From: a bacterium | GTDB lineage: Bacteria > SAR324 > NAC60-12 | Length of the DNA stretch: 64,000 bases | Direction of reading: 5' to 3' | Assembly: GCA_965233585.1 (NCBI GenBank) | Contig: CBDDTI010000746.1 | Coordinates: 128,001-192,000, forward strand | Made by a program: the position numbers and the translations under genes | Part shown: positions 40,412-60,764 of the stretch, piece by piece | How positions within the stretch are numbered: position 1 is the first letter of the stretch | Layout of the letters: each line of letters starts with the position of its first letter | Notes under the pieces: model-generated | The model's database searches: none | The model's input: only the letters and a program-made list of their open reading frames with translations | What the model was told of the DNA's origin: nothing

Positions 40412-41568
40412 TTGAGGAGATAATCTAAAGAAAGCAAATTTCCTGCATCGTTCTCAATATAGCCTGTTGCATCTACAATTCTGATGTATTTAGGCAATGC
40501 GTCATCTGGATTTTTATGAGTCCATTCTATGATTTGAGATGAAGAAGTAGATGAATATTTCTTCAACTTCTTTTCACCAATTAAATTCCAGTTTTTATCA
40601 TAAATCCATATTTTAGGGAAAAGTCTTGTTTTTCCAATGGGAAACCATTGAAATTCTAGCCTCTCCAAATTCTCTCCTTCAAGTTGAAAAGATGCAGAAC
40701 CTCCCCTTCTCGGAATTTGTCCGTAAACTAAAGTTTCAGCAGGTAGTGATGACAGCACATCTCTTTGCATGACTACTTGCAAATCAGGTTGGGGCAAGCC
40801 TCTTTCATCTAAAGTTTGCTCAAGCTGTTTTGAAATTTGTGCAGAGGGAAGCTGTTGCACTTTTTGAAGCATATCCAACTGCAAATCAAGGTGTGGGGGC
40901 TTGTATTGGGCTTGTGAAATACGGATTTGCGAGCTAAACGTCTGTTTGGGAATTTGTTTGAGCCATTTTGAAAAATCACCGGCATATTCTCCACGATAAA
41001 TCGTGTTAGAGCGGGTCAGAACGTCAATTCTCCAGTCTCTCCAACGAAAATCTCTCTCAAACACTTCACCGATAAATTGCTGATGAACCTCCCCAAGAGA
41101 CACCCCACGAATGGTCACGATGACAGGAGTGAGACCCCCCGCAAACTGTACTGGTAACTCCAAACTTTCCAGCACTGAAATCAGATGCCCTTGAAAGACT
41201 GTTGCCCGAAGTTGAACGTCAACACGAGTGAAGTCTTTTGAAACATTTTCTTGAATCAGGCTTAACTCACCAATGAATCTATCAGGATTTTTTAAGACAT
41301 GCGTTTGTATGAGTTGTTGCTCTTTTTGAGTATCCTCATTTGGAATAAAACTTCGGTTTCGGAAGGGGAGTAGCAAGTCGTTGGGTAAAAAATCCCCTAG
41401 CAACTGAAGCATCAAGTTTCGCTTGGCATGAGCAATCGCTTTGGCTTTCGCTTGGGCATGGTCGTCCCTCAAAATCTTTGCAGAACCAGACACAACAAGT
41501 CTATTTTCTGATGCAAATGCCCCAACTAATTTGAAGAACAACAAAATGCTTAGCAAGAAGTATTTCAC
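40390..41568 (-). CDS. Exported protein with FlgT-N-like domain
   Basis: Signal peptide then GSAKI...AKAKAIAHAKRNLM pattern; remainder unassigned. Confidence 0.55.
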   Translation of the reverse strand: MKYFLLSILLFFKLVGAFASENRLVVSGSAKILRDDHAQAKAKAIAHAKRNLMLQLLGDFLPNDLLLPFRNRSFIPNEDTQKEQQLIQTHVLKNPDRFIGELSLIQENVSKDFTRVDVQLRATVFQGHLISVLESLELPVQFAGGLTPVIVTIRGVSLGEVHQQFIGEVFERDFRWRDWRIDVLTRSNTIYRGEYAGDFSKWLKQIPKQTFSSQIRISQAQYKPPHLDLQLDMLQKVQQLPSAQISKQLEQTLDERGLPQPDLQVVMQRDVLSSLPAETLVYGQIPRRGGSASFQLEGENLERLEFQWFPIGKTRLFPKIWIYDKNWNLIGEKKLKKYSSTSSSQIIEWTHKNPDDALPKYIRIVDATGYIENDAGNLLSLDYLLKWSVKSK

Positions 41569-44883: not shown

Positions 44884-45160
44884 CTGACAACATTTTTAGA
44901 CACTCACTGACTTAAACCCCTTAGCATAGTGGATTCAATAGATTTTTTTCAAAAAAACTCCAATCAATCAGATTTTTCTCAAAACTCTAACTTTTTCTGA
45001 CCTTCCAACCTGTCTATTTTCCAATGTTCTAAAAAATCTTAAAAACTCCTTAAATTTTCTTCAAAATCCTGCATCTTTGAGGTTTTGGAAGGTTTGATAG
45101 TTATCAAAAGTGGCAGAAGGCATCATTCATTTTTTGAAGAAAGTGAAACACTTCGTCCCT

Positions 45161-45217
45161 CCGTCATTGCTCACCTTGTCCGCAATCTCATTCTTCTTAA
45201 AATACAGGACAAACTAC
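45161..45217. repeat. Deleted copy of the 59439-59533 palindromic repeat unit, abutting the lipoprotein A stop codon
   Basis: ccgtcattgctcaccttg..ccgcaatctcattcttcttaaaa(t/c)acaggacaaac is shared with 59439-59514. Confidence 0.85.
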
Positions 45218-46317
45218 CTCCCAAACTTGATTAAAAGCATGTCCTCATTTCCTGAATTGGTGTGTCCATCAAAATTTCCTCCAGAGAATCCTGTCACGTA
45301 AACATTGCCTGCTGAATCCACACTCACTCCCTTTCCTGCATCACTACTGGTAGTGCCAAGCAACTTAGACCTTTTTTTGACACCTGAAGTATCATACTTG
45401 ATTAAAAATATGTCAAAGTCTCCTGAATGGGTCTTTCCATCAAAAGCTCCTGAAGAGCTTCCTGTCACGTAAACATTGCCTACTGAATCCACACTCACTC
45501 CATTTCCTGCATCACTACTGGTAGTGCCAAGCAGTTTTGACCACTGCTTGTTGCCTGAAGTATCATACTTGATTAAAAACATATCCTTACCTCCTGAATT
45601 GGTCTGTCCATCAAAGGCTCCTGCAGAGAATCCTGTCACGTAAACATTGCCTGAAGCATCCACACTCACTCCATGTCCTCTATCATCACCGCTAGTGCCA
45701 AGCAGTTTTGACCACTGCTTGTTGCCTGAACTGTCATACTTGATTAAAAACATGTCCTCTTTTCCTGAATTGGTCTTTGTATCAAAAGCTCCTTTAGAAT
45801 ATCCTGTCACGTAAACATTGCCTGCTGAATCTACACTCACTCCTAATCCGTCATCACGAGATCGACTGCCAAGCAGTTCAGACCATTGTTTAGCCAAGTG
45901 TTCAGCAATGGCTTGGTTGTGGCAAGCCCATTCAGAAGCAGAAGTCTTGCCTGATGCTTTCACACGAACGCAGAGTTTGTCTTTGGCAATGGCATCATCT
46001 CCAAAACTAAAAGGGCTGCTGCAATCAGTAGGAGTTGTGCCTCCATCTTTGGAACATTGATAGCTTTGCCCTGAAGTGGTGGCAAAGGTCAAGGTTCTGC
46101 CTGAAATAGCAAGAGAAGTTGGCGGCTTTGGTGGCTTGGTAGCTTCAGCAGTGTTGTCATCTGATGGACTACGTTTGTCAGTGCAAGAAACGAGGACACT
46201 GAGACCAAGCAGGACTGAACATTTCTTCAAAGAAGAAGGTTTAAGAAATGATGCAAAAGCATCGGTGCAGGCAACAAGTGCTTTGATAAACGTTTTGATT
46301 GTATGACGTGCAAACAT
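45214..46317 (-). CDS. Surface lipoprotein A: extended signal, Cys module, 4 SBBP beta-propeller repeats
   Basis: Lipobox LVSC at residue 45; repeats GVSVDSAGNVYVTG...DMFLIKYDxSG; GGAG RBS. Confidence 0.88.
   Translation of the reverse strand: MFARHTIKTFIKALVACTDAFASFLKPSSLKKCSVLLGLSVLVSCTDKRSPSDDNTAEATKPPKPPTSLAISGRTLTFATTSGQSYQCSKDGGTTPTDCSSPFSFGDDAIAKDKLCVRVKASGKTSASEWACHNQAIAEHLAKQWSELLGSRSRDDGLGVSVDSAGNVYVTGYSKGAFDTKTNSGKEDMFLIKYDSSGNKQWSKLLGTSGDDRGHGVSVDASGNVYVTGFSAGAFDGQTNSGGKDMFLIKYDTSGNKQWSKLLGTTSSDAGNGVSVDSVGNVYVTGSSSGAFDGKTHSGDFDIFLIKYDTSGVKKRSKLLGTTSSDAGKGVSVDSAGNVYVTGFSGGNFDGHTNSGNEDMLLIKFGR
45225..45890 (-). repeat. Intragenic tandem repeat, 4 x 171 bp (57 aa)
   Basis: cctgtcacgtaaacattgcct recurs at 45290, 45461, 45632, 45803. 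Confidence 0.92.
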
Positions 46318-46486
46318 TTGATGGACTCCATTTAGAGGTTAGATAAAAAAACAACATTCAACACAATGAATGTCGTCATGGTAAAACTCTTGGTTTGAAA
46401 AAAAACATCATCTGATTTTCAAGGAAAAGAGTTGAATAAAAACCAAAGCTATACTATGCAAGTACAAAAAAAAAATACAAGCCACG
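46318..46486 (-). promoter_or_regulatory. Poly-T promoter and two-hairpin leader of lipoprotein A
   Basis: ggcTTGTA-T10-gtacttgCATAGT, then two hairpins and GGAG; homologous to 55569-55736. Confidence 0.65.
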
Positions 46487-46595
46487 ACTTAGAATATTTG
46501 AAGTTTTCTTGAGTTGGTGTAATTTTTGTCAAGAGAAGGAAGGACTGGCAAAAAGTGGTCAAGTTTGGGGTTAAAAAGTTTTTTCAATATAAATT

Positions 46596-46624
46596 TTGAA
46601 TATTTGACAAGTTTTTGCTATACT
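46596..46624 (+). promoter_or_regulatory. Sigma70 promoter for mrp-ftsH
   Basis: TTGAAT, 17 nt, TG-c-TATACT (extended -10). Confidence 0.55.
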
Positions 46625-46652
46625 TCGAAGATTTTGCATTGCCTAATAAATC

Positions 46653-47711
46653 ATGGATTTGAGAGAGCAGTTTGAGACGGTCTTTTGTTCTATCCCCTAT
46701 GGAACATCTGGTCAAAATTTGATTGATGCTGAAGTGGTGCATGGTTGCATCATCAATGAAGATTTTGCAAAGGTGACGCTGATTGTGCCAAATCATCTTT
46801 TGCATGCAGAGTTGTCCCATGTTGTCAAAGACAAGCTGACAGCGATTCCAGAGATCAACCGTGTGGCTATTGAGTTTCTTGACCAAGCACCTGCTGAAGA
46901 ACCCCACAGTTCCAAGCCTTCTACCAAGCTCAAAAAGCCTTCTTCAGTGCTTTATCTTGAGGAGTATAAAGAAGTGATTGCCGTTGCCAGTGGCAAAGGC
47001 GGGGTGGGGAAGTCCACGGTGGCAGTCAATCTTGCGATTGCTTTGGCACAAATGGATTATCAAGTCAGCTTGTTTGATGCAGATATTTTTGGACCAAGTC
47101 TGCCAATGATGCTGAACATACGCAATGAACGTCCAACCACTGTCAAAAATCGTATCTTGCCAATCAAACAGTATGGCATTCAAACTATGTCTATTGGGAA
47201 TTTGATTGAAGAGCAGTCGTCTGTGATTTGGCGTGGTCCGATGGTGCATCAAGCGATTCAGCAGTTGTTGCGTGATACCAACTGGACAGGTGGAGATTTT
47301 ATGATCATTGACCTACCACCTGGAACGGGAGACGCCCAGCTCACTCTTTCGCAAAGTGTTCAGATTTCTGGTGCAGTGATTGTCTCCACGCCTCAAGATG
47401 TTGCACTACTTGATGCTAGAAAAGCAATCAATATGTTTGAAAAAGTGGATGTGGAAGTCTTGGGCTTGGTTGAAAATATGAGTTCTTTCATCTGTCCTCA
47501 TTGCCAGACGGCTTCTCATATCTTCGGAAAACATGGGGCAAAGCAAGAAAGCGAACGTTTAGACATTCCCTTCTTAGGCTCAATTCCACTTGAGCTAGCA
47601 GTGAGAGAAGGTGGAGACTCTGGTGAACCTGTTGTTACTCAAAAACAAAGCACTCCTGCAAAAGATGCTTTTTTTGAACTAGCAACAGCATTATCTGACA
47701 TTTTATCTTAA
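46653..47711 (+). CDS. mrp: Mrp/NBP35 (ApbC) Fe-S carrier ATPase
   Basis: SGKGGVGKSTV, DADIFGPS, WRGPM, DLPPGTGD, ENMSSFICPHC. Confidence 0.93.
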   Translation: MDLREQFETVFCSIPYGTSGQNLIDAEVVHGCIINEDFAKVTLIVPNHLLHAELSHVVKDKLTAIPEINRVAIEFLDQAPAEEPHSSKPSTKLKKPSSVLYLEEYKEVIAVASGKGGVGKSTVAVNLAIALAQMDYQVSLFDADIFGPSLPMMLNIRNERPTTVKNRILPIKQYGIQTMSIGNLIEEQSSVIWRGPMVHQAIQQLLRDTNWTGGDFMIIDLPPGTGDAQLTLSQSVQISGAVIVSTPQDVALLDARKAINMFEKVDVEVLGLVENMSSFICPHCQTASHIFGKHGAKQESERLDIPFLGSIPLELAVREGGDSGEPVVTQKQSTPAKDAFFELATALSDILS

Positions 47712-47735
47712 ACTTTTCTTTCCTTTGAGGTTTTA

Positions 47736-49517
47736 GTGAATTCTTTTTTTAAAAATATCGGCTTATGGCTGATGATTGGTTTATCATTCCTTTTAGGTTT
47801 CATGTTTTTTGGTGAAAGCCAGCCAACTGCAGGGAACCACGTTGCATTTTCTGAATTTATGACAGACTTGGAGAGGGGAAACATCACAGGGGTTGTTGTG
47901 AGAAGCAATGAATTACTGGGGATTCGTCTTGACAAAAGCGTCGTGCAAACACTTGCACCTGACTATCCCAATCTCATCAGTGATCTTGAAAAGCAACAAG
48001 TGACAATTCAAGTAGAACCGACCGAGACACGTAGCTTATTCCTTGCCATACTCAACAGCTGGCTGCCTATCTTATTGATTGTGGGCATCTGGGTTTTCTT
48101 TGTCCGACAAGTCCAAGGCAACGCAGGGAAGGCGCTGGGCTTTCAAAAAATGAAGCTCCCTTCTACTGATGGTGCAGACAAAACCGTGACGTTCCAAGAT
48201 GTTGCAGGAATTGATGAAGCCAAAGAAGAGCTTTCGGAGATTGTAGATTTTCTGGCAGACCCCAAAAAATTTAGTGAACTTGGAGGCGAGATTCCAAGAG
48301 GCGCCTTGCTCATTGGCAACCCTGGCACAGGGAAAACACTCATGGCAAAGGCAATCGCAGGAGAAGCAGAAGTTCCGTTTTTTAACATCAGTGGCTCTGA
48401 TTTTGTTGAAATGTTTGTTGGTGTTGGGGCAAGTCGTGTGAGAGATTTGTTTGACCAAGCCAAGAAAAGCGCACCTTGTATTATTTTTATTGATGAAATT
48501 GATGCACTTGGCAGAAGTCGTGGCTCTGGCATGGGAGGTGGACATGATGAACGTGAGCAGACCTTGAATCAATTACTGGTGGAGATGGACGGCTTTGAAG
48601 TCAATGAAGGGATCATCGTCATTGCCGCAACCAACCGACCTGATGTGCTAGATTCTGCACTCTTGCGACCCGGACGTTTTGACAGACACATCACAATTCC
48701 CATGCCTGATATTGCAGGACGCCAAGCCATTTTAGAAGCCCATGTGAAACATGTGACATTGGCAGAAGATGTGGATTTACATGTGATTGCAAGAGGCACT
48801 CCGGGCTTTACAGGGGCAGACCTTGCTAACCTTGTCAATGAATCTGCGCTTTGGGCAGCACGTCAAAATAAAGAAGAGGTCAACAAAGATGCCTTTGAGT
48901 ATGCACGTGATAAAGTCCTGATGGGAACAGAACGCAAAACTGCATTGATCCACGAAAGCGAAAAACGCACCACTGCCTATCACGAGGCAGGACATGCCAT
49001 TGTTGCTGTTGCCATTCCAGAAGTTGACCCTGTCCACAAAGTCACCATTATCCCACGTGGGCAAGCTCTTGGGGTGACTCAATTATTGCCAGAAGAAGAC
49101 CGCCACAGCTACACCCAAAAAGGATTGCTTGGACAGATTGCTATGATTATGGGAGGACGCGCTGCAGAGCATCTGGTGTTTCAACGTTTCACAACAGGTG
49201 CAAGTGATGACTTGAAAAAAGCAACAGACATCGCACAACGCATGGTGTGTCAGTGGGGAATGAGTGAAAAACTAGGACCGCTTTGCTGTTCAGATGATGA
49301 ATCTAAACAAAACTATTCACAAAAATCATACAGCAATCACACTTCACAAATCATTGATTCTGAAATCAAACGTATCTTAGAACAGGCTTATGCCAGAGCC
49401 AAAGACATTTTGACAGTACACCGAAACGTCCTTGACGAAATTGCCGATGCCCTCATGGAACAAGAAACGATTGACGGAGCCGTGGTAGAAAGCACATTCG
49501 CCAGACACTCCTCCTGA
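47736..49517 (+). CDS. ftsH: ATP-dependent zinc metalloprotease FtsH
   Basis: Two [28 protein letters not shown]. Confidence 0.97.
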
Positions 49518-49608
49518 GCTTTTTGAATCTTTCTCAAACCTCAAAAATGGGACAGAGATTGAAAATCAGGGACTCAAAGAGTTGACCGATGCCACTTCAA
49601 AAGATTTT

Positions 49609-50319
49609 TTAATCAAAATCCCAGCCAAGAAACAACTCTAGCAAAGTATCATTTCCTGCTTTCACAGACTCATTGCCTGCTGAATCTACTGCTGTTGCAC
49701 CTAAAATACAAGCACAGACAGAAACCCCTGCCATAAAGGAATCTACCTGATAGAAAAATGGCAAAACAAAGCCTAACGTCTCAAAGCCAGAGTCTTCTAC
49801 TGATTCAGAAATCTCCTGTTCGGTCTCGTTACCTCCAATAAACGTAGTCAGAGTGCCTTTGTAGGACATTTTCATGTCATTAGCAATGCCAACCCGCAAC
49901 TGTGGTTGGAAAAACTCCCAAAAAGCATATCCCACGTTGACCACAAAACCTGACAGACTATAATCCATTTCTAGCTCAACTTCTTGCCTAGTTTGAAGTA
50001 TTCCTCCTCCCTCACTCTCTCCAATTTTTTCCTTGCCATGAGATAAAGTCAGACTTTGAAAGCCAATTCCCCAAACCCATTCATCAACAAAAGAATATCC
50101 CACATAAAAGGAACTCCCTGACGTTTTGACAACTTTGTCTTCAGAAATGCTTGTCACAGCTTTTTTGAAATAGGTGGTGGTTCCTGTGGCAGGACCCCCT
50201 GAAAGTTCCAAACGATCGGCAACAGACGTTGTAGTGAACATCCAAGTATTCAGCACGCCTATCAAGATTGATTTCTTTGTCAATGATTTAAATGCGTTCT
50301 TTGTAAATAATTTTTTCAT
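49609..50319 (-). CDS. Putative outer-membrane beta-barrel protein
   Basis: Signal peptide, amphipathic beta strands, C-terminal LELFLGWDF. Confidence 0.6.
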   Translation of the reverse strand: MKKLFTKNAFKSLTKKSILIGVLNTWMFTTTSVADRLELSGGPATGTTTYFKKAVTSISEDKVVKTSGSSFYVGYSFVDEWVWGIGFQSLTLSHGKEKIGESEGGGILQTRQEVELEMDYSLSGFVVNVGYAFWEFFQPQLRVGIANDMKMSYKGTLTTFIGGNETEQEISESVEDSGFETLGFVLPFFYQVDSFMAGVSVCACILGATAVDSAGNESVKAGNDTLLELFLGWDFD

Positions 50320-50464
50320 AGCGACTTGATTCTAAAAATTTTAAAAAGTGTTGGTGTTGAAAGAGATTGAAATTTTTTTAGGGAGTCGTCGTCCTTTTGT
50401 TGTTCATAACCTCTACCTATCAAGCACGATTTTTGTTTCAAAAACTTTTGCTTGTTGAGTGTCA

Positions 50465-50779
50465 TTATGCCACCTCAAGCAAATAATCATGTATCACTTT
50501 TTCTATCAACTCATCTTCTTTCATACCTTTCTTTTTTGATTGTTCTTGAAGTTTTAAAAAATCTGTTTGCCTTATTCTACAAGAAACTTTTTTGACTTCT
50601 TCCCTCTCAACTCCCAAAGATTTGTAAAAATCATCTACTCTTTTTTGTCTTTCTTCCTCACTAAAAAAAGAAGGGGGTTGACTTTCCAAATAATCATCAA
50701 TAGAGTTAGATGTTTCTATTTCATAATCATCTAACTTATACTGTTTTACAAAGGGGTGTTCTTTGTGTAATTTTTCCAT
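50465..50779 (-). CDS. Putative antitoxin (C-terminal RHH/CopG-like)
   Basis: Acidic N-terminus, KKVSCRIRQTDFLKLQEQSKKKGM...LIEKVIHDYL; directly downstream of the toxin. Confidence 0.7.
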   Translation of the reverse strand: MEKLHKEHPFVKQYKLDDYEIETSNSIDDYLESQPPSFFSEEERQKRVDDFYKSLGVEREEVKKVSCRIRQTDFLKLQEQSKKKGMKEDELIEKVIHDYLLEVA

Positions 50780-50785
50780 ATTGAC

Positions 50786-51076
50786 CTATTTTAAGTTATA
50801 TTGTTTATTCAATTTTTGACTTGGTATGATAGTAATCAAGTTTAATACATTCTCTCTTACTTCAAAAGGAACATAATGAATATAATCATGTAAACTGATT
50901 ATAAAAGATAACTGATTTGGATATTTAACTTGATTCGGTGTGAAAATTATATCTATAACTTTTCCAAGCCTTATCTCTTTCTCTACCATTTCAAAACTAA
51001 CTTTCCTGACACTGTTCTTTAATATTTCATTCTTTTCTTCTTTCCATTCAATAGGAACTTCTTTTAAATTCATCAC
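50786..51076 (-). CDS. BrnT-like toxin
   Basis: EWKEEKNEILK..RKVSFE, KYPNQ, YIHYVPF, LITIIPSQKLNKQY. Confidence 0.72.
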   Translation of the reverse strand: MMNLKEVPIEWKEEKNEILKNSVRKVSFEMVEKEIRLGKVIDIIFTPNQVKYPNQLSFIISLHDYIHYVPFEVRENVLNLITIIPSQKLNKQYNLK

Positions 51077-51157
51077 TATAAAGATTAAACGTCTATCATA
51101 ATAATCAAAAATTCTACAAAAGCAAATTTATTTCATCATCATCAAAACCTTGTTCCC

Positions 51158-51610
51158 TTATTGATTTTTTAAAGACCTTTCCATGTCACGTTGAGCAGTT
51201 TTCTTTTTAAGAGACTCCCGCTTGTCGTGAATTTTTTTGCCTTTCACCAATGCAATTTCTACTTTCACTTGACCATTTTTGAAGTACAGACTGAGAGGGA
51301 CAAGCGTCAGCCCTTTCTCCCTTACCTGACCATAGAGACGTTTAATCTGGTATTTATGTAAAAGTAATTTACGACTCCTATCAGACTGATGATTCATGCG
51401 ATTGCCATATTCATATTGTGCAATGTGCGTGTTCATCAAAAAAACCTCCATCATGCTATCCACTTTGCAGTAGCCATCATTGATGTTGGCTTTATTCAGC
51501 CGTAGGCTTTTGACTTCTGTGCCTTTGAGAACGATGCCTGCTTCAAACTTTTGTATGATTTCATGTTCAAAGCGTGCTTTTTTATTAGAGGCAATGATTT
51601 TCTGTCCCAT
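51158..51610 (-). CDS. smpB: SsrA-binding protein
   Basis: NKKARFEH, EAGIVLKGTEVKSLR, RKLLLHK, GKKIHDKR. Confidence 0.97.
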   Translation of the reverse strand: MGQKIIASNKKARFEHEIIQKFEAGIVLKGTEVKSLRLNKANINDGYCKVDSMMEVFLMNTHIAQYEYGNRMNHQSDRSRKLLLHKYQIKRLYGQVREKGLTLVPLSLYFKNGQVKVEIALVKGKKIHDKRESLKKKTAQRDMERSLKNQ

Positions 51611-52973
51611 TCTCTGTTTTCAGTTTGTGTGATGCCCATTCTAAAACGCTGTCCAATGATGGAAAATGTCCTTCTAGTTGTAGTTGAAAGCTTTCCCGAA
51701 TCAATGCCCCCATAGCAGGACCAGGTGCCATGCCTAAGGCGATTAAATGCCTTCCTAAAAGCATAGGAGTAAACCCTTTTTTAGGAACTGACAACGTCTT
51801 GAATTGGCGTCTTAACCAATCCCCTGCTGGAAAGGAACGATACATGGCATCAATCGTCGTGCGTCCAAAATGGTCTGCTTGTGCAAGCCTTAACAAATTG
51901 GGAATGTCCACACGCAATGAAAGTCTGCGGATTGCAGAGTCTTTGATGACATGCCTTTGCTGATATAGCATAGCAGGTTGCAAATGTTCTTTGACAAAAA
52001 TTTTGACGTTTTCAATGAGTTCTTTCTCATCTGTCAGCTTTCTCAAAAAAAGTTCAGTTGGTTTCATACCTAGAACATCATGTGCAGGGCTTCGCCATCT
52101 GCCATCTTTAAAAACAGTGGTGACAGGCTTGCCAAAATCATGACACAAGGCACTGAACATCAGTTGTAAATCTTGTTTGGGGTTGCCATCACGCAATCTT
52201 GCCGCCTCGTCTATCACCATGAGTGTATGAATCCAAACATCACCTTCAGGGTGCCATTGAGGGTCTTGAGGTGTCCCAATCAATGCACCAAGCTCGTCAA
52301 AATGCTCTAAAATCCCAAGTTCATTGGCATATTGAAGACCCAGCGAAGGCTTTCTTGCAAGCAAGAATAATTTTTTAAATTCTTCAAACAAACGTTCTTT
52401 GGAAAGTTCAGCAATTTCAAGATTTCTGCAGACTGCCAGTGTTTCAGAGTCAATACGAAATTCAAAACGTCCTGCAAATTGCATCGCACGGAGTACTCGC
52501 AAGGGGTCTTCGCCAAAAGCATCAGAAATATGCTTGAGTTGTTTTTTTTGAATCGCTGTGCGTCCGTCAAAGGGGTCATGCCATTCCTCTTTGGTGGGGT
52601 CATACCCAATGGCATTGATTGTAAAATCTCTTCTTGCTGCCGCTTCTTCAAAGGTAAAGGAAGAGTTCAGCTCTACCTCAAAAGCACGATGTCCCCTGCC
52701 AAGTTTTCTCTCTTTACGAGGCAACGAAAAATCATACTCCCTTTCTTGTGTGAAAAGTTTAAACACTCCAAAAGACTTGCCAACTTCTATGACTTGACCA
52801 AAGCGACCTAACAAAGTTTGCAAACGTTCAGCGTCAATCCCGTAGCACTCAATATCAAAATCTCCGCTTGATGACCTTCCCAAAATAAAATCACGTGTTG
52901 AACCACCGACAAGAATCATCTTGTGAGGTTTCGCACTTTGCATGATTGCCATCAACTCTTGTGGAATATCCAT
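51585..52973 (-). CDS. cca: CCA tRNA nucleotidyltransferase with HD domain
   Basis: VGGSTRD, DFDIE, RRDFTINA, EDPLRVLR, HPEGDVWIHT, LCHDFGK. Confidence 0.88.
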   Translation of the reverse strand: MDIPQELMAIMQSAKPHKMILVGGSTRDFILGRSSSGDFDIECYGIDAERLQTLLGRFGQVIEVGKSFGVFKLFTQEREYDFSLPRKERKLGRGHRAFEVELNSSFTFEEAAARRDFTINAIGYDPTKEEWHDPFDGRTAIQKKQLKHISDAFGEDPLRVLRAMQFAGRFEFRIDSETLAVCRNLEIAELSKERLFEEFKKLFLLARKPSLGLQYANELGILEHFDELGALIGTPQDPQWHPEGDVWIHTLMVIDEAARLRDGNPKQDLQLMFSALCHDFGKPVTTVFKDGRWRSPAHDVLGMKPTELFLRKLTDEKELIENVKIFVKEHLQPAMLYQQRHVIKDSAIRRLSLRVDIPNLLRLAQADHFGRTTIDAMYRSFPAGDWLRRQFKTLSVPKKGFTPMLLGRHLIALGMAPGPAMGALIRESFQLQLEGHFPSLDSVLEWASHKLKTENGTENHCL

Positions 52974-53022
52974 TTTTGCAAAAACTGTGATTGGAGTGAC
53001 TTAAAACGTCTTCACAGATTCA

Positions 53023-53193
53023 TCATCTCTGCTTAGACTGCTTTGAACCTGAAAGGTAGAGGTTAAAAAGGATAGAGGACAAAAGTGCTTTGGCTTCAGC
53101 AAAAATGTTCTCTTCTTGACCTTGGAAAACGGGAGTAGAAACGGCTGTCTCTGTTTCTGCTTGATTGCTAAGGACGTTGTTGATATATTTCAT
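53023..53193 (-). CDS. Small hypothetical protein (56 aa)
   Basis: Manual translation MKYINNVLSNQAETETAVSTPVFQGQEENIFAEAKALLSSILFNLYLSGSKQSKQR*; no recognised motif. Confidence 0.3.
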   Translation of the reverse strand: MKYINNVLSNQAETETAVSTPVFQGQEENIFAEAKALLSSILFNLYLSGSKQSKQR

Positions 53194-53313
53194 AACTCTA
53201 GCACTTTTTTGCTCATTGCTTGCTTTATTTCTTTCAAAAGCAAGGCATCTAGTCTAGCAGATTTTTGAGAAAAAGAAGGAGAAGCAACAAGTTTTCTGTC
53301 ATTAATAAAATTC

Positions 53314-54015
53314 ATGGATTCCAAAAAAGTCAATCAGCTGTGTGAAAAGCTGGGGTATCAGTTTGAAAATGCGCAACTCTTGGAACAAGCGATGACTCAC
53401 ACTTCTTACTGTTCAGGAGTGGCATCAACCCCATACCACAATGAAAGACTTGAGTTTTTAGGAGATGCCTTGCTTGAACTAGCGATTAGCGAACACTTAA
53501 TGAATGCTTACCCTCATCTGCGAGAAGGGACTTTGAGCCAAATGCGGGCAAAACTGGTCAACACAGAAAGCCTCAGTCAACTTTCAAACAAGCTAGGACT
53601 TCATCTTTTGCTTCAATTAGGAAGGAGTGAAGAAAAATCTGGAGGCAGGAAGAAGCAGTCTATTTTAGCAGATGCCTTTGAGGCACTGATGGCGGCAGTT
53701 TATTTGGACGCCAAGCTAGACTTTGGAGTAATACGTCAGTTGTCAAAACACTTGTTTCAGGAACAAATCCAGCAATTACAGCACGTCTCTTCTCTGGACT
53801 TCAAGGGGCATTTACAGCAATACACCCAAGCCGAATTTCAAACTTTGCCTGTTTACCAGACCGTGAAGGAATCAGGTGCAGACCATGACAAACTTTTTGA
53901 AGTAGTGGTCTTAATCAATGACACCGAACATGGCAAAGGGAGTGGCAAAAGTAGAAAACAAGCAGAATTGTCTGCCGCACAATCTGCACTTGCTCAACTT
54001 CGGTTGTCAACCTGA
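53314..54015 (+). CDS. rnc: Ribonuclease III
   Basis: HNERLEFLGDA, ADAFEA, C-terminal dsRBD. Confidence 0.97.
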   Translation: MDSKKVNQLCEKLGYQFENAQLLEQAMTHTSYCSGVASTPYHNERLEFLGDALLELAISEHLMNAYPHLREGTLSQMRAKLVNTESLSQLSNKLGLHLLLQLGRSEEKSGGRKKQSILADAFEALMAAVYLDAKLDFGVIRQLSKHLFQEQIQQLQHVSSLDFKGHLQQYTQAEFQTLPVYQTVKESGADHDKLFEVVVLINDTEHGKGSGKSRKQAELSAAQSALAQLRLST

Positions 54016-54039
54016 CCCCTTCTTTCAAAACACAATTCC

Positions 54040-55035
54040 ATGACGTTTGACTGTTCTCCATCTATTCCAAGAGATTGGATTCTTTCGCTCATCTGTCTTA
54101 CAAACACTTCTCCATGTCTGCAAACAATTTCAGACCTTTGCCAACCCTTCGGCTTACAAATCGTGGCATGTCAAAAATTATCTTCAAATGATAGCCAAAA
54201 AAACCATAGCACCCAAAATGACACTCAAGAACCTGATGTCTTGGAAGTCTCATTGAAACAACAAGGCTCTTTTTGCAAGCAAGAGTGGATTCATGCCTTA
54301 CTTCAAAAGCATCAGCAAGGTTTGTTTGACTTCGCTGTTCAGGCGGCAACCCCCTTTTATCAAAGACCGAGATTGGTCATGTTTGATGTGGATATGACGT
54401 TCTTGCAGTGTGAAGTCATTGATGAACTGGCTTGTTTGTCAGGGGAAGATCACGCAGTGAAAGCCATCACGCATCAGACGATGTTGGGGCATCTTGATTT
54501 TAAACAGGCACTTGAACAACGTGTCGCACTGCTCAAAGGGATTCAAGTGGGGGCAATGAATCAAATTTGCGAAAACTTACCCTATACGCAGGGGATTCAA
54601 GTCTTAGTTCCAATTCTTAAGACGATGGGTTGTGAAGTGGGCATCGTCAGTGGAGGCTTTGATTTTTTGGCAAATTGCCTGAAAAAAGAATTTGGGTTGC
54701 ATCATGCCTACGCCAACCAACTTGAAATCCAGCAAGGCAGGCTGACAGGCAGACTGCTTGGTCAAATTGTTGATGCTGACCAAAAAGGCAAGATTGTCAA
54801 AGCCATTGCCGAGCAGCAAGGGCTTTTTCCTGAACAGGTCATCACAGTAGGCGATGGTGCAAACGATTTGCAAATGTTGCAATTTGCAGGTTTAGGAGTG
54901 GCGTTTAATGCAAAACCCGTTGTCAAGGCATCTGCAACGGGAGTCCTTTCTACTCCTGACATCAGCAGACTGCTTTATTTTTTAGGATTCTCAGCGTTTG
55001 AACAACATCAACTCAAACAAAAACTTGGTCTTTAA
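54040..55035 (+). CDS. serB: Phosphoserine phosphatase
   Basis: FDVDMTFLQCEVIDELA, VSGGF, VGDGANDL, AFNAKP. Confidence 0.92.
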   Translation: MTFDCSPSIPRDWILSLICLTNTSPCLQTISDLCQPFGLQIVACQKLSSNDSQKNHSTQNDTQEPDVLEVSLKQQGSFCKQEWIHALLQKHQQGLFDFAVQAATPFYQRPRLVMFDVDMTFLQCEVIDELACLSGEDHAVKAITHQTMLGHLDFKQALEQRVALLKGIQVGAMNQICENLPYTQGIQVLVPILKTMGCEVGIVSGGFDFLANCLKKEFGLHHAYANQLEIQQGRLTGRLLGQIVDADQKGKIVKAIAEQQGLFPEQVITVGDGANDLQMLQFAGLGVAFNAKPVVKASATGVLSTPDISRLLYFLGFSAFEQHQLKQKLGL

Positions 55036-55159
55036 AACTCCCATAATTTTTGACCTTCAGCCTATTCATTTCCCTAGTTTCTTCACTTTCTGATTCCCCC
55101 TTTGGTGAAGGTGTGCTTGCCTTCAGCAAGTAGGGTGTTTTTTTCGTTACCACACAACC

Positions 55160-55354
55160 GTCATTGAGGGCTTGACCCGCAATCTCTCTTGTCTTTTTCT
55201 CACTTCCCCGTCATTGCTGACCTTGAAAAAAGTCATTGCGGGACCTGACCCGCAATCTCTCTTTTATTTTTTGAGATTCCGCATCAAGTGCGGAATGACT
55301 GAGAGGTTTTGTAGGCGTGTCTTTTCGTCATTGCGGGACCTGACCCGCAATCTC
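55160..55354. repeat. Cluster of GTCATT-headed palindromic repeats (REP/dRS3/RPE-like)
   Basis: gtcattgcgggacctgacccgcaatctc at 55232 and 55327, variant at 55160, inverted unit gattccgcatcaagtgcggaatgac at 55275. Confidence 0.9.
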
Positions 55355-55568
55355 CCTTGTTTTTTCACAATAACCCTCATCTTTCCTGACCTCCCAATCT
55401 GCTCCTTTTTTCCTTTTTTTGAAAAATCTTCAAAACTTTTTAAAACTTTTTAAATTTTTTTCAAAACCTTTCAAACCCTTATCTTTTCTGACTTCCTGAC
55501 CTTCCTCTTTTTCCAAAAAATCTTTAAAATTCCTTAAAAAACTAAAAAATGACCCAAAAATTAAAAAC

Positions 55569-55736
55569 GTTGGCTTGTTTTTTTTTTTTGTACGTGCATA
55601 ATGCCCGTTTTGGCTTTTCGCAAAACTCTCATCTTGAAAACAAATGAGGTTTTCATTTCAAGAGGGGAGTTTTTCGTGTGACAGCACCCGCAGGGGGTGC
55701 TGTTGTTTTGTTTCATCTCTCATTGGAGTTAATCAA
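55569..55736 (+). promoter_or_regulatory. Poly-T promoter and two-hairpin leader of lipoprotein B
   Basis: ggcTTG-T12(55578-55589)-gtacgtgCATAAT; hairpins 55622-55673 and 55680-55704; GGAG at 55725. Confidence 0.65.
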
Positions 55737-58700
55737 ATGTTTGCATTTCGTACGATGAAAGTGTTCCCCAAAGCACTTGTTGCCCTCACCGATGCTTTGG
55801 CATCATTCCTCAAACCTTCTTGCCTTAAAAAATGCTCAATCCTGCTTGGCGCCAGTGTTGTGATTGGCTGCGGTGAAGATGGTGCTGTGTCAGTGTCAGC
55901 CAAACACACTGCCCAGACCAAGCCAGAGTCAAGCGAGTCTGTGTGTCTGGAGATTCCCCAAGCCCTGACGCAAGGCACAGGCAACCTTGCCGTCTTCAAT
56001 TCACTGGGTCAAGATGTCCTGCTGTCGTATTCCAGCAAGCTGAATACAGATGATGTGCTTGCCGTCATTGGTGCCAAGCAAAAAGGGGTCAAAGTGGACA
56101 TTTCCAAAAGGACTTCTTCCATCGTCACCTTGTTCGCCTTCAAGATGCCAGCTGTCCAAGACTACTTTGAAGCAGACTGCGATGATTCCCAAATGCCAAC
56201 GGCTTTTATGCAGAGTGGGTTCATTCCATCAGCCAAATCCAGTTTTGTGATAGGCACTAAAGAATCCAAGTCAGACTATGGCATGTTGCTGGTGCGAAAC
56301 AATCGTGATGAGAAGGTGTCTATTTTTCAAGGCAGTTCGCAGAATCAGCAAATTGGCGTCATTGCCAGCAAGGAACTGGACTACCGAATCAAGATTCCTG
56401 TCGGTGCTAGACTGCTGATGTTTTACCCACACACAGATTCAGGAGAGATTGACTTCCAAAATCCTGTCCTTGTGAAGAACCTAGTCTTTAACAAAGATGA
56501 CAAAAAACGCATCATCATTCCTGAACAACAAGTCTTGAGCGTGGCAAAAATCAACTTTACTAATTCTTCTGACCAAGATGTGATGCTGACCGTGAAGAAC
56601 AGTGATGAGGCGTTGTTTAATGTAGAATGCAGTTGTGCAGATTTTAACAAAAATTCTGTGTCAGCCAAGATGATTCTGGTCAATGGAAAGTATTATGCTG
56701 ATGACTTCTTCTTTTCTGTCATTAGTTTAGACACAGGTCAAACTTTGATTCGGAGTAAGCCTTTTCAGCTGGACAAAAACACGAATGTGAATTTTACATT
56801 GAACAAGAATTTGACGCTGACGAAGGGCTTGGTCAATGCCGTTGTTGCGAAGAATCAAGAGCCAGAGAAGCCAGAAGACTTGAAAATCAGCCAAGTGACC
56901 TCTAATAGTTTGCAATTAAGCTGGTCGCCTTCTGCAGACGCTGATGGCGAAGTGACAGGTTACGAAGTCTCTCACAAAACAGGCAATGGAAACTGGCAAG
57001 TCGGCACAGACACCACTCAAACAATCGTCATCGTCTCTGGTTTGCAACCTGCCACTGCCTACACCTTTCGTGTCCGTGCCAAAGATGATGAAAATGCTTG
57101 GAGTGATTATGAAGAAAGCAAACCTGTCCAGACGCTTCCTGCTGCCAACAAACCACCTGAAAAACCCAGCAACATCAGCACCAGCGATGTCACTGCAGAC
57201 AGCATCAAGGTCTCATGGACTGCTGCCACAGATTCTGACGGACAAGTGACAGGCTACGAAATCTCTTACAAAACAGGCAATGGATTCTGGTCAGGCACAA
57301 GCACGACAGCCAACACGGCATACACCTTTCAATCGCTGCAACCTGCCACCAGCTACACTTTCCGCATTCGTGCCAAAGATGATGACGGAGATTGGAGTCC
57401 TTACCAGACAAGCACCGCTGTCAGCACTGCACCCAATGCACCAACTTCCCTTGCAGTGTCTGCCAGAAGCCTGACCTTTATGATGACTTTAGGCAACAGC
57501 TATGAATGTTCCAAAGATGCAGGCACCACAAAAACCAACTGCAACAGCCCCTTTAGTTTTGGTGATGATGCCATTGCCAAAGACAAGCTGTGCGTCCGTG
57601 TCAAAGCATCAGGCAACACTCCCGCATCAGACTGGGCTTGCTATGACCAAGACATTGCTCAAAAAACTCCTGCTGTCAGCCAAGCAGTCACTTGGAATTT
57701 TGACAACGGCAACAAGCCAAATGGCTTAACAGGCAACTGGTCTGTTGTCTCTGGTGGGGCAAACAGCACTTCCAAAAGCCTCAAATCTGCAAACATTGGC
57801 AGCAATCAACAAACCTGCGTCCAAACCACACGCAATGTCTCAGCAGGAGACGTGGAATTTCAATACAAAGTCAGTTCAGAACAAAATTATGACGAACTCT
57901 TCTTCTACATTGATTCTTCAGAAAAGCTAGGGGGCAAAAGTGGAAACATCGGCTGGACACAAGCCAGCTATGCTGTCTCGGCTGGAAGCCACACCTTCAA
58001 ATGGTGCTACAAAAAAGACTATGCCCTCAGTGAAGGAGACGATGCCGCTTGGATTGACCAAGTCAACTTTCCAGACTCTTCTGCTGCCTCCCATGACTTC
58101 TCCAAATACACTTGGAAAGAAATCAAACCCAATGACAACACAGGCTGGTCTAAACGTTGGGGGCATACCAGCGTCGTTTTTAACAACAAAATCTGGGTAA
58201 TTGAAGGTGATGTCTGGAGTTCTGCTGATGGTCAAACTTGGACTAAAGAGACGAGCAATCCTGGCTGGTCTTGGCGTATTCGTCATACAAGCGTTGTTTT
58301 TGATAATAAAATCTGGGTGCTGGGGGGAACTGATAGTCCTAAAAACGATGTCTGGAGTTCTTCTGATGGCAAGAATTGGACTAAAGTCACTGCTTCAGCA
58401 GATTGGTCTAATCGCAGAGAGCATAGCAGCGTTGTATTTAAGAACAAAATCTGGGTGCTGGGAGGATGGTCTAACACTCACAAAAACGATGTCTGGAGTT
58501 CTTCTGATGGCAAGAATTGGACTAAAGAGACGAACAATGCAGGCTGGTCAAAACGTTATTCACATACAAGCGTTGTCTTTAACAACAAAATTTGGGTGAT
58601 TGGAGGAGGTGTAGGGAATGGAATTGTCAAAAATGATGTCTGGAGTTCTTCTAATGGAACAACTTGGGAAGAGCATAAGATTCCATCAGGCAAGACCCGT

Positions 58701-59351
58701 TGGTCTTCAAGGGAAGAACATAAAAGCGTTGTGTTTGATGGCAAAATCTGGATTCTTGTGGGAGATGGTATTGGATTTCACTACAACGATGTTTGGAGTT
58801 CTTCTGACGGAGCAAACTGGACAAAAGTCACTGATTCAGCAGTCTGGATAAAACGTCGGCAACATAGCAGCGTTGTATTTAATGATAAAATCTGGGTGCT
58901 GGGTGGATATGATGGTTCTAGCAGAAACGATGTTTGGGCATTTGGTCCTCCGTCTTCTCAAATTTGGAGTTTTGAGGACAATAAAAAGCCTAGTGGTTTG
59001 AGTGGCAACTGGGCTGTGGTCTCTGGTGGTGCAAGTGGCAGTTCCAAAAGCCTTAAGTCTGCAAGCATTGGCAATAATCAAGAGACTTGTGTCCAAACAA
59101 CGCAAACCGTTTCCAACGGACAAATCAAGTTTCACTACAAAGTGAGTTCAGAACGAAGGTATGACAAACTCTTCTTTTACATCGGGTCTTCAGAAAAGCT
59201 AGGAGGCAAAAGTGGAACGATTGCTTGGAAGCAAGCCAGTTTCAACGTCTCTGCTGGAAGCCACACCTTCAAATGGTGCTACAAGAAGGACAGTTCCGAC
59301 AGCGAAGGAAGAGATGCCGTCTGGATTGATGACGTCCAGTTCCCACAATAA
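55737..59351 (+). CDS. Large surface lipoprotein B: extended signal, unknown N-domain, 2 FN3, Cys module, beta-sandwich, 6 Kelch-like repeats, beta-sandwich
   Basis: Start at 55737 by homology to lipoprotein A and RBS; lipobox VIGC; FN3 LQPATxYTFRxRAKD x2; WSxRxxHxSVVFxNKIWVxGG..NDVWSSxDG x6; duplicated domain of about 128 aa. Confidence 0.88.
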   Translation: MFAFRTMKVFPKALVALTDALASFLKPSCLKKCSILLGASVVIGCGEDGAVSVSAKHTAQTKPESSESVCLEIPQALTQGTGNLAVFNSLGQDVLLSYSSKLNTDDVLAVIGAKQKGVKVDISKRTSSIVTLFAFKMPAVQDYFEADCDDSQMPTAFMQSGFIPSAKSSFVIGTKESKSDYGMLLVRNNRDEKVSIFQGSSQNQQIGVIASKELDYRIKIPVGARLLMFYPHTDSGEIDFQNPVLVKNLVFNKDDKKRIIIPEQQVLSVAKINFTNSSDQDVMLTVKNSDEALFNVECSCADFNKNSVSAKMILVNGKYYADDFFFSVISLDTGQTLIRSKPFQLDKNTNVNFTLNKNLTLTKGLVNAVVAKNQEPEKPEDLKISQVTSNSLQLSWSPSADADGEVTGYEVSHKTGNGNWQVGTDTTQTIVIVSGLQPATAYTFRVRAKDDENAWSDYEESKPVQTLPAANKPPEKPSNISTSDVTADSIKVSWTAATDSDGQVTGYEISYKTGNGFWSGTSTTANTAYTFQSLQPATSYTFRIRAKDDDGDWSPYQTSTAVSTAPNAPTSLAVSARSLTFMMTLGNSYECSKDAGTTKTNCNSPFSFGDDAIAKDKLCVRVKASGNTPASDWACYDQDIAQKTPAVSQAVTWNFDNGNKPNGLTGNWSVVSGGANSTSKSLKSANIGSNQQTCVQTTRNVSAGDVEFQYKVSSEQNYDELFFYIDSSEKLGGKSGNIGWTQASYAVSAGSHTFKWCYKKDYALSEGDDAAWIDQVNFPDSSAASHDFSKYTWKEIKPNDNTGWSKRWGHTSVVFNNKIWVIEGDVWSSADGQTWTKETSNPGWSWRIRHTSVVFDNKIWVLGGTDSPKNDVWSSSDGKNWTKVTASADWSNRREHSSVVFKNKIWVLGGWSNTHKNDVWSSSDGKNWTKETNNAGWSKRYSHTSVVFNNKIWVIGGGVGNGIVKNDVWSSSNGTTWEEHKIPSGKTRWSSREEHKSVVFDGKIWILVGDGIGFHYNDVWSSSDGANWTKVTDSAVWIKRRQHSSVVFNDKIWVLGGYDGSSRNDVWAFGPPSSQIWSFEDNKKPSGLSGNWAVVSGGASGSSKSLKSASIGNNQETCVQTTQTVSNGQIKFHYKVSSERRYDKLFFYIGSSEKLGGKSGTIAWKQASFNVSAGSHTFKWCYKKDSSDSEGRDAVWIDDVQFPQ
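58140..58945 (+). repeat. Six intragenic Kelch-like repeats
   Basis: Six copies of H.SVVF..KIW..G followed by DVWS/DVWA. Confidence 0.9.
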
Positions 59352-59368: not shown

Positions 59369-59904
59369 TCCCTTCCTTTCTTGAGAAAGGAGGGCAGTCA
59401 AAGCCTGACGGGGTAATCTTTTTTTGTTTGTGACTACCCCGTCATTGCTCACCTTGAAAAATGTCATTGCGAATCTTGCCCGCAATCTCATTCTTCTTAA
59501 AACACAGGACAAACACGTGGGTTTGTCCCTACTCTGTCATTGCGGACTGTGTATTTAGTCATTCCTGCGAAAGCAGGAATCTCTCTTTTGTTTTTTCTCA
59601 TTTCCCCGTCATTGCTCACTTTGACCCGCAGTCTCTATCTTGTTTTTTGAGATTCCGCATCAAGTGCGGAATGACAACTATTGTCATTCCTGCGGAAGCG
59701 GGAATCTACCCTCTCACTGCTGATGGATTCCGCATCAAGCACGGAATGACAGACTTGTAATTGTGCGAAAGAACGTCACCCCTGTGAAAACAGGGGCAGG
59801 AATCCAGTCACGTTAGTAATCTGTGCTTGGTTTGGTGATAGATTCCGCATCAAGTGCGGAATGACGGAGGGCGTTTGAGATTCCGTGTTAGGCAGGGAAT
59901 GACG
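59369..59904. repeat. Array of about 10 palindromic repeats in both orientations
   Basis: gattccgcatcaagtgcggaatgac at 59651 and 59841, variant at 59726; gtcattcctgc(gaa/gga)agc(a/g)ggaatc units; GTAG-type hairpin ggacaaac..gtttgtccctac. Confidence 0.92.
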
Positions 59905-60005
59905 AAAGGAAGTGAGGTGGATTGAAGAACTTTGCCCTTCTGCTACTCATTAGAGAGAAGATGACCCCAGAAGTAACAGAGATTGGTCTCTCTGCTACTT
60001 GTTTT

Positions 60006-60764
60006 GGTATTGTTAAACTATAAGTGATATGCGATATTAAGTTCATTTAATTGAATTGATAGTCATGGTGTAGCAATGAAGTCGTGTCCTAGATGTGAAA
60101 GTGAGAAGACGGTTAAGAATGGTTTTTTATATGGTAAACCGAGGAGGCGTTGCAATGCCTGCAACTATCAATATACCAAGTCCTATCGTGGTCAAATCTC
60201 ACCACAGATCAAAAGAAGAGCATTAGAGTTGTATTTGGAGGGTCTTGGTTTCAGGTCAATCGGTCGTTTGCTGAATTGTTCTCATGTTTCAGTTTATAAT
60301 TGGGTCTGTAGTTTTGGCGAACAGCTCAAGGCATTAAGAAAGGACACAGACATTGAAATTATGGAAATTGATGAAATGCACACCTACATCCAGTCAAAAA
60401 AACTACTGCTGGCTCTGGATTGCTGTTGATAGATGTGGGAAGCAATTTATCAATTGTGTGCTTGGAAACAGAGACTCAAAAGCCTGTAGGCATTTATGGG
60501 ACAAGGTCAAGGAAACAAAACCTCTTCAGGTGATGACTGATCACTGGAAGGCTTACAAACAAGTCATTCCCAAAGAAATTCATACATGTTCCAAGGCAGA
60601 AACATACACGGTAGAAGAGTATAATTCTCTCTTGAGACATTTCTTGGCAAGAATGAGAAGGAAAACCAAATGTTACAGCAAGTCTCTTAAAGCATTACAA
60701 TATTCTGTTCTTTTGTTCATGGCAAAACGGAATAATCAGCTATCACTTATTAATTAACAATGCC
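60006..60764 (+). mobile_element. IS1-family insertion sequence, apparently complete
   Basis: IRs ggtattgttaaactataagtgata / ggcattgttaattaataagtgata (20/24); InsA with CPRC..CNAC zinc finger and HTH (60076-60429); InsB (to 60757); A7C slippery site 60396-60403. Confidence 0.93.

Follow-up and report, generated by a model that had tools for sequence, protein, structure and literature searches.

Most of what is known of mosaic, phase-variable repertoires at the cell surface comes from cultured pathogens and one predator. The opa genes of Neisseria are dispersed complete paralogues that can each be switched separately; recombination between the genes has made them mosaic, and the loops that bind are hypervariable. 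The Opa proteins keep one beta-barrel architecture, and a pentamer repeat lies in their signal sequence. Here we describe a lipoprotein family in a bacterium of the uncultured SAR324 lineage (assembly GCA_965233585.1), starting from two members, gene A (45214..46317, minus strand, 367 amino acids (aa)) and gene B (55737..59351, plus strand, 1204 aa), which lie in a window of 64,000 nucleotides (contig CBDDTI010000746.1, positions 128,001 to 192,000). The reading that we favour, and regard as reasonably probable from the sequence comparisons given below, is that of a family of dispersed genes, evolving by birth and death, whose products are lipid-anchored binding proteins of the cell surface and form a phase-variable mosaic adhesin or receptor repertoire similar to Vlp and Opa.

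As reported, each member of the Vlp set of Mycoplasma hyorhinis has its own transcript, a homopolymer tract in the promoter and repeat-based size variation (PMC10502178), and the MAT fibres of Bdellovibrio are ca 21 surface proteins of mosaic make-up, in which the presenting end is conserved and the binding tips are diversified (PMC10769870). The present family resembles Vlp in having a shared promoter and leader with a homopolymer run of variable length, and in size variation by gain or loss of repeats, gene A being without three of seven blades, here a difference between paralogues and not within a population. It differs in its poly-T run and scattered genes, and its proteins consist of folded multi-domain stalks with domain-swapping propeller heads. 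ON/OFF switching is proven for vlp, whereas we infer it here, and the likeness described is one of layout. The MATs, as described there, are trimeric and phage-fibre-like, while the present proteins are lipoproteins with Ig/FN3 stalks and propellers. With Opa, the family shares dispersed mosaic paralogues with hypervariable loops, but here the architecture itself is shuffled. LipL53-like SBBP lipoproteins are described as attaching to laminin, fibronectin and collagen IV (PMC13066512); the Leptospira LipL53 family (NF047494) likewise consists of SBBP-propeller lipoproteins, but with a different stalk, while the heads are interchangeable here, and gene A scores 144.6 against NF047494, below the cut-off of 400. 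Judged by analogy, the family works like the Opa-, Vlp- and MAT-type surface repertoires and is a member of none of them.

Both genes begin with the same 45-aa lipoprotein signal, Lead1, whose last residue is the lipobox cysteine (Cys45 in gene A), present in the sequence and the basis of the predicted lipidation. In gene A, Lead1 (46183..46317) is followed by a 73-aa four-cysteine stalk domain of FN3/Ig type, called CM (45904..46122), and four SBBP propeller blades with hypervariable top-face positions (45217..45885), all on the minus strand. Gene B starts at an ATG with GGAG at 55725 ahead of it and encodes, on the plus strand, Lead1 (55737..55871), a region of ca 300 aa called ND that is itself mosaic (55938..56840), two FN3 domains (56868..57431), a CM copy (57441..57659), a beta-sandwich (BS) domain of ca 130 aa without a Pfam match (57687..58076), six Kelch blades with hypervariable loop positions (58104..58952, borders approximate) and a second BS domain (58959..59348). 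The assignments derive from the list of open reading frames (ORFs), Pfam, tblastn and a module catalogue; the first BS domain has a weak match to a non-protease domain of VesC (E 8.5e-5).

A sequence-only reading of the window, made without database searches, had noticed the shared leader and module, and its observations are reproduced by the programs. The leaders are identical at 32 of 45 residues (71.1% by tblastn; BLASTP E 3e-16) and the modules at 55 of 73 (75.3%; BLASTP E 2e-35), with exactly the borders 45904-46122 and 57441-57659; a 23-aa core is the same in both, and Pfam recovers the four SBBP stretches of A and the two fn3 domains and Kelch repeats of B. At the DNA level, the module matches over 233 nt at 79% and the leader block over 293 nt at 73%, and the DNA of the identical core differs at 6 synonymous and no non-synonymous sites, identical runs within CM reaching 23 nt at most. 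The signals are indeed homologous, but the shared front block does not start at the ATG. The homology reaches ca 170 nt further upstream and takes in the promoter and a two-hairpin 5′ untranslated region (UTR), so that the block is a whole expression cassette that extends beyond the signal peptide. A shorter signal starting from a TTG in gene A was rejected, since the corresponding site in B is CTT and the ATG has the GGAG.

The genome bin measures 12 Mb in 747 contigs, of which a core of ca 2.96 Mb (contigs C747, C746, C745, C295, C729 and C723) is defined by a shared tetranucleotide profile and high coding density. The remaining ca 9 Mb is low in coding and holds 112 of the 113 reverse-transcriptase hits, which identifies it as eukaryote-like contamination. 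Three-quarters of the bin is thus eukaryote-like DNA although the listed marker contamination is 2%, and this suggests a host-associated sample. An iterated profile search of the genome places 32 CM matches in 22 ORFs; 25 of the matches are full copies of the typical form, 3 are truncated, 3 divergent and 1 a remnant. The leader is present in 9 ORFs, 8 of them with CM. All of the CM family ORFs are scattered on four core contigs. Leader and module do not form the linked pair that had been supposed: the leader occurs in 8 of 22 CM ORFs, one leader carrier is without CM, and at least five different signals precede CM genes. When 24 ORFs are catalogued by module, leaving out the divergent gene and the remnant, they fall into 18 collapsed architectures with 27 kinds of domain adjacency; after merging split pieces and adding these two, the family amounts to ca 23 loci. 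The module thus exists in far more than two copies and in varied architectures, and a pair of fixed copies, which would have spoken against the sequence-only reading, is excluded.

With so much foreign, low-coding DNA in the bin (ca 9 of 12 Mb), chimeric joins or repeat collapses have to be considered as a source of the patchwork. However, all family genes sit on large contigs with matching tetranucleotide profiles, the copies differ at silent and top-face sites, and one read contig reproduces a junction of CM, a REP-like palindrome, a further leader (Lead3) and BS, although its run may be the source sample. We consider an assembly artefact barely credible.

The heads found in the family are SBBP, Kelch, RCC1, a DUF5122-like propeller, Lcl_C and LamG, with CM directly beside SBBP 11 times. 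The mosaic structure is evident in the DNA, where 97 tracts of at least 150 nt at 95% identity or more join the 24 ORFs as a patchwork (a few tracts between physical neighbours are omitted from this listing). The clearest case, a recent head swap, is the pair C295:233649 and C745:227517, which are 99.8% identical over 1073 nt, from Lead3 through BS and FN3 into CM position 44; past this point one continues as BS-Kelch-LamG and the other as SBBP. A third gene exits the same tract inside FN3, and a fourth passes two residues into FN3 directly to SBBP. Similarly, the ND of C747:469395 switches type in mid-domain. The mosaic tracts are plain from these alignments, and their formation would depend on RecA; recA is found on the core contigs.

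The sequence-only reading had interpreted the two shared blocks as a dedicated cassette system, in which leader and CM, perhaps served by a specific recombinase, are kept on purpose as recombination joints for exchanging the heads on a scaffold. Part of this stands: there is a modular lipoprotein family that exchanges its heads, with one clear swap inside CM, and CM lies at the border of stalk and head in many genes, as the 11 SBBP adjacencies show. In Mantel comparisons, the 5′ quarter of CM correlates with the upstream flank (r 0.52) more than with the downstream one (0.25), while the 3′ quarter gives 0.27 and 0.29, and this loss of upstream linkage fits some crossing-over inside CM. That leader and CM are privileged joints is not supported, however. 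Near-identical tract ends, whose counts are not independent events, number 6.2 per kb in ND, 5.2 in BS, 4.9 in FN3 and 2.1 in CM, sparser in CM than in the other three at all three thresholds and, relative to ND and FN3, also per covered base; they are spread over 19 five-residue bins of ND, 12 of FN3 and 5 of CM. CM is no more conserved than the other modules (median aa identity 67%, compared to 71% for ND and 81% for BS), and its identical core carries the silent differences noted above. The same head types also occur on an unrelated stalk of ca 110 aa or on FN3 rods, Kelch heads being present in 19 ORFs without CM against 6 with it and RCC1 in 6 against 1, and 17 of the 23 loci have a promoter-like element of their own, most with their own signal. 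We thus regard purpose-built joints as quite improbable. General recombination would suffice, with CM as one of several usable homology blocks.

The unrelated stalk defines a second family, in which a domain of ca 110 aa after the lipobox carries Kelch, RCC1 or FN3 heads without CM. Its members are at C747:985004-993907, 406682, 439057, 517907, 199429, 202108, 529196 and 738576, C746:242808 and 244255, C745:237210, and C295:74461 and 226308.

Specialised variation systems were compared as well. In silent-cassette variation (vlsE, pilE/pilS), a single expression site is fed by promoterless silent cassettes; here we found no silent cassettes for the family, and the promoters and signals just mentioned are of another type. 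In shufflons and other site-specific inversions, a recombinase gene stands beside clustered modules with one short fixed crossover site. The present family is instead scattered on four contigs with tract ends in many bins, and no recombinase or reverse transcriptase lies beside its loci on the core contigs. The core has 3 tyrosine recombinases, 1 serine recombinase and 1 reverse transcriptase, each at least 40 kb from CM and ND loci on the same contig, with the exception of the serine recombinase at ca 25 kb. A diversity-generating retroelement combines a reverse transcriptase with a template repeat that matches the variable region. The sole reverse transcriptase of the core (C746:294563-295024, in a 556-aa frame) is distant from the family, and the last 900 nt of the Lcl_C gene, the only head checked for a template repeat, match only themselves.

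As to the novel adjacencies, these have short homologies only. At three loci CM is cut at CATTGC, a motif also present in the REP-like palindrome, and the cut copy is joined to a second gene's promoter and signal. At C745:66849-61777 and C747:469395, the in-frame fusion through REP gives a 1673-aa ORF, whose middle holds a second promoter-like T7 element, a signal peptide and a lipobox; separate production of the 3′ half is therefore possible. In the region of C747:469430, a family gene has a frameshift in a G7 run just ahead of ND, which could be slippage or an assembly error. The available reads (four runs from at most two samples of one study, contigs at a depth of ca 3-5, possibly the source) cannot reveal mixed junctions or tell variants within a locus from paralogues. 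Of the read joints that differ from gene B, 58081>57140 fits the BS-FN3 order of paralogues at the level of module order, 57577>57675 matches paralogues, and 58823>59440 has no exact paralogue match and is probably derived from a paralogue that ends in Kelch and has a REP cluster downstream.

Considered as a protein, CM is a well-predicted domain. An AlphaFold model based on 17 copies has a pLDDT of 90.6 and is all beta, and the hits of a wide structural search are all FN3 domains (best Z 7.9, rmsd 2.5 over 74 of 80 residues, none with Z of 8 or more), many of them tied, which gives the fold class and no particular relative. The description of the module as FN3-like is hence confirmed by a confident FN3/Ig-type fold. 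Foldseek gives no match at E ≤ 0.001, with chitobiase among the top rows, and Pfam gives no family for any of the 17 copies at E up to 10, fn3, CHB_HEX_C and Big included. Among 1.84 billion representative sequences, 75 proteins match CM, 7 of which are this genome's own. The four-cysteine form at more than 60% identity is confined in this set to the present genome and one protein, P0009, encoded on another contig (8.8 kb); it is 64% identical and has an M23 peptidase domain, CM and then a different propeller-like region, which suggests a sister population or species. The remaining matches are ca 30-45% identical Ig-like repeats, mostly in tandem. One group of these distant kin has the first cysteine pair; another, of lipoproteins, has the C-terminal half in common and sometimes the second pair. 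The CHB_HEX_C and Fn3-like bacterial Ig repeats share the FN3/Ig fold, and some of the distant kin overlap weak CHB_HEX_C hits, but CM has no Pfam match and has the four-cysteine form; Atlas matches of CM to CHB_HEX_C/Fn3_assoc score 0.80-0.83, all below 0.9, and are leads only. CM was found in none of 40 relatives (24 of the same family, 16 of the same order, none of the same genus) with a single-sequence query, nor in metagenome or viral contigs, and one weak 17-residue hit in other genome contigs was rejected; the sets searched may lack records that are very close to this genome. CM and the leader are both without a matching family in Pfam or NCBIfam, in agreement with the sequence-only reading, which had recognised neither, and we found no description of the family in the open full-text literature, judged at the level of title listings, subscription journals being outside the search.

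The pN/pS ratio of CM (non-synonymous to synonymous differences) is 0.39. This purifying selection, together with the silent differences in the identical core, indicates that CM is conserved as a protein, as a lineage-specific spacer. It is probably a compact, two-disulfide spacer domain and not a DNA joint, the likely pairs, judged by the order of the strands, being C30-C41 and C58-C74 in the numbering of the model; VKOR is present on the core contigs, and DsbB was not found in this genome, which is 92% complete. The extra n-region of the signal is only weakly constrained (pN/pS ca 0.5, summed over 15 pairs) and tolerates a 22-residue insertion in two copies. ND, in turn, turned up in this genome alone (5 hits from 2500 candidates that were 662-2107 aa long); its AlphaFold model, built from 8 sequences, is of low confidence (pLDDT 34), and its Atlas hits are all below 0.9 and leads only.

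We now consider the heads, where the variation is concentrated on a few positions. The SBBP set comprises 58 blades from 13 ORFs and the Kelch set 93 part-blades from 19 ORFs of both stalk families, blades outside the fixed-length patterns being left out of the pN/pS counts. SBBP positions 10, 12, 14, 29, 31, 42 and 43 carry 9-13 different residues each, with pN/pS of 1.9-2.9, compared to 0.18 in the strands. For Kelch, positions 5, 6 and 22-24 have values of 1.4-2.8 against 0.28. Parsimony counts on trees, taken on the sites' own synonymous rate, give 1.7 for SBBP and 1.4-1.5 for Kelch. Among solved structures, the best relative for the SBBP head is CylK (E 2.7e-56), whose active-site cleft is reported to be at the top face of the propeller (PMC8916777). 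The eight residues that are named in its active-site passages, S318, W320, N334, E374, L438, D440, Y473 and F499, correspond to blade positions 12, 14, 29, 12, 10, 12, 43 and 12, counted by hand along the alignment. The top faces of the propeller heads thus bear the sequence signature of diversification under selection.

A similar pattern has been described for the WD40 repeats of the Podospora HNWD proteins (het-d/het-e), in which a few codons are hypervariable under diversifying selection (PMC12222747). The shared features are very similar propeller repeats, a few top-face codons with dN/dS above 1 and a repeat number changed by unequal exchange. The HNWD proteins are intracellular fungal NOD-like receptors (NLRs), whereas the present ones are bacterial and predicted to be exported lipoproteins. 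No NACHT or effector domain is among the Pfam hits of the members scanned, and the effector role entertained by the sequence-only reading is left without a function found.

Since the variable SBBP positions coincide with active-site positions of CylK, the best solved relative, one may also think of enzymes at the surface, whether CylK/BrtB-like or other hydrolases of propeller type, whose substrate pockets have diversified. We regard this as very improbable. CylK and BrtB are alkylating enzymes, but the equivalents of the catalytic Tyr473 and Asp440 are hypervariable here, with 12-13 different residues at the catalytic positions. The N-terminal domain of CylK that supplies Arg105 has no counterpart, the 73-aa CM preceding the head instead, and the unrelated Kelch, RCC1, LamG and Lcl_C heads are interchangeable with SBBP.

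The expression cassette offers a possible means of switching. The promoter-like element has the form TTG-(T run)-GTAC(G/T)TG-CATA(A/G)T. Before gene A (46453..46481, minus strand) it reads TTG, T10 (46466-46475), GTACTTG and the −10-like CATAGT, and before gene B (55574..55602, plus strand) TTG, T12 (55578-55589), GTACGTG and CATAAT. Of the 22 copies in the core, 17 lead into family loci, 4 into genes for other lipoproteins and 1 into another gene. The runs are T8-T12, and the distance they span is 12 nt in 12 copies, 11 in 3, 10 in 5, 9 in 1 and 8 in 1. Four copies whose flanks are identical differ in run length alone, at T10, T11, T12 and T12. All 7 T12 runs and 16 of the 25 T/A runs of 10 or more in the 2.96-Mb core fall in this element, though the copies share ancestry and the 16 runs are not independent events. 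If the element is read as −35 TTGnnn and −10 CATA(A/G)T, the modal spacer would be 16 bp, and contractions would weaken the promoter. Read variants one or two T shorter were rejected as within-locus switching, because they match assembly paralogues (T11, T10 and T8). The two UTR hairpins (46350..46433 in A, minus strand, with the second at 46350-46377 followed by a T run; 55619..55706 in B, at 55619-55676 and 55678-55706) show compensatory changes at 8 of 21 consensus pairs in 15 copies, and Rfam gives nothing credible for them, the four weak hits being far below gathering scores.

One CM gene has another type of repeat, (CCGCAAT)24 straight after the ATG and out of frame, while a paralogous leader has two units in frame. 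The five (CCGCAAT)n loci, C746:488451, C746:71143, C745:167299, C747:156575 and C295:101579, have n of 24, 18, 9, 8 and 17, respectively; four of the repeats are directly after the ATG of a shared long lipoprotein leader and are candidate translational switches. The poly-T promoter also precedes three large paralogous lipoproteins of another family (C747:368553, C747:819406 and C745:128177), with REP clusters between promoter and gene.

Mobile and repetitive elements accompany the family. Clusters of REP-like palindromes with CGTC/GTC tags flank gene B on the 5′ side (55159..55365) and the 3′ side (59406..59918), and may belong with the CGTC-type REP elements, which are described as short, high-copy palindromes with a CGTC tag (PMC3733652). 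The REP core occurs in 240 copies, most of them preceded by (C/T)GTCATTG, and RAYT was not found in the 92% complete genome. An IS1-family insertion sequence (IS) with two ORFs lies at 60006-60760. At one 8-bp target by the Lead3 promoter, IS1 is inserted in opposite orientations in C745 and C295, with a target duplication in C745 and the other end in unrelated DNA in C295, hinting at IS-mediated rearrangement.

From such elements one may construct a neutral account, in which REP/IS1-linked duplication, conversion and T-run erosion in a small host-associated population lead to expansion and decay with no adaptive switching. This would explain the 33 near-full IS copies of the core, with insertions in or abutting three family loci, the REP tags, which 13 of 21 CM genes have no further than 500 nt from their 3′ end (compared with 73 of 1319 long ORFs), the broken members, the four-blade head of gene A and a T run that shows contractions only. 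It does not explain the purifying selection on stalks and blade cores, the confinement of dN/dS above 1 to top-face positions, or the compensatory changes in the UTR hairpins. We hold purely neutral turnover to be unlikely, somewhat less so than purpose-kept joints.

Several observations weigh against the phase-variable repertoire that we favour. A consensus promoter scan did not call the element in A or B. No T run goes beyond the modal spacing, and broken genes more often have a short spacer ahead of them (3 of 7 versus 1 of 10 in our own tally), which fits simple decay or homopolymer under-calling. MutS and MutL, encoded on the core contigs, should restrain slippage and homeologous exchange. 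Around 7 of the 23 loci are damaged, by frameshift, loss of the leader or reduction to a remnant in addition to the cases above. The hypervariable sites were chosen post hoc; SBBP loop classes set a priori give 2.1 and 1.4 on their own pS and only 1.1-1.3 on the global pS, and blade pairs are not independent, while recombination can inflate pN/pS. Finally, the family is known from one assembly only.

Taking the points together, our proposal for the dispersed mosaic repertoire is as follows. The gene plan would be promoter, hairpin UTR and signal, then an Ig/FN3-type stalk made of ND, FN3, CM and BS, and then a binding head (SBBP, Kelch, RCC1, DUF5122-like propeller, Lcl_C or LamG/ConA). Ectopic recombination of the RecA type, together with gene conversion, would reassort stalks and heads through whichever module is shared, CM being one of these. 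Rare short-homology joins would create new neighbours, as in the CM-REP junctions via CATTGC seen in the sequence, and unequal exchange between blades would alter the blade number. The case for this last step is gene A, which equals a seven-blade paralogue minus exactly 171 aa, in frame, with the crossover in a conserved GxGVSVD stretch; as judged from that alignment, its head is a seven-blade ancestor less three blades. Selection would diversify the top face of the propeller, and slippage in the poly-T spacer, or in (CCGCAAT)24 in one member, probably sets which members are displayed. Surface display, binding and phase variation are what we infer from these features.

A stronger version of this proposal is a live, antibody-like receptor repertoire, ca 20 genes switched by poly-T slippage with ongoing ectopic exchange in one host-associated population, where exchange via CM and FN3 and between blades would keep yielding combinations of stalk and head and of top faces. 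This is possible, but we would not expect it.

Two further features of the window may be mentioned. AT-rich repeats with a 10-nt period are found at 55405-55545, just 5′ of the gene B promoter, and at 44940-45070, between the end of gene A and an oxidase gene. The ORFs at 49609-50319 and 40390-41568 look exported and have no Pfam match; the former has a C-terminal aromatic-rich tail, a pattern that we take to be typical of small beta-barrels.

Nothing in the way these genes recombine seems out of the ordinary, and the finding is the less surprising for it. What is of interest is that one genome of an uncultured lineage unites domain shuffling, HNWD-like hypervariable faces and, as we read it, promoter slippage in a single lipoprotein family. 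It provides a natural library of SBBP and Kelch propellers varied at seven and five known positions, respectively, along with a small well-predicted stalk domain (CM) and an orphan 300-aa region (ND), both without Pfam models. The family points to a strong arms race at the cell surface, and if the live repertoire were true, an uncultured marine bacterium would have a combinatorial recognition of host, prey or phage that works without diversity-generating retroelements or silent cassettes.

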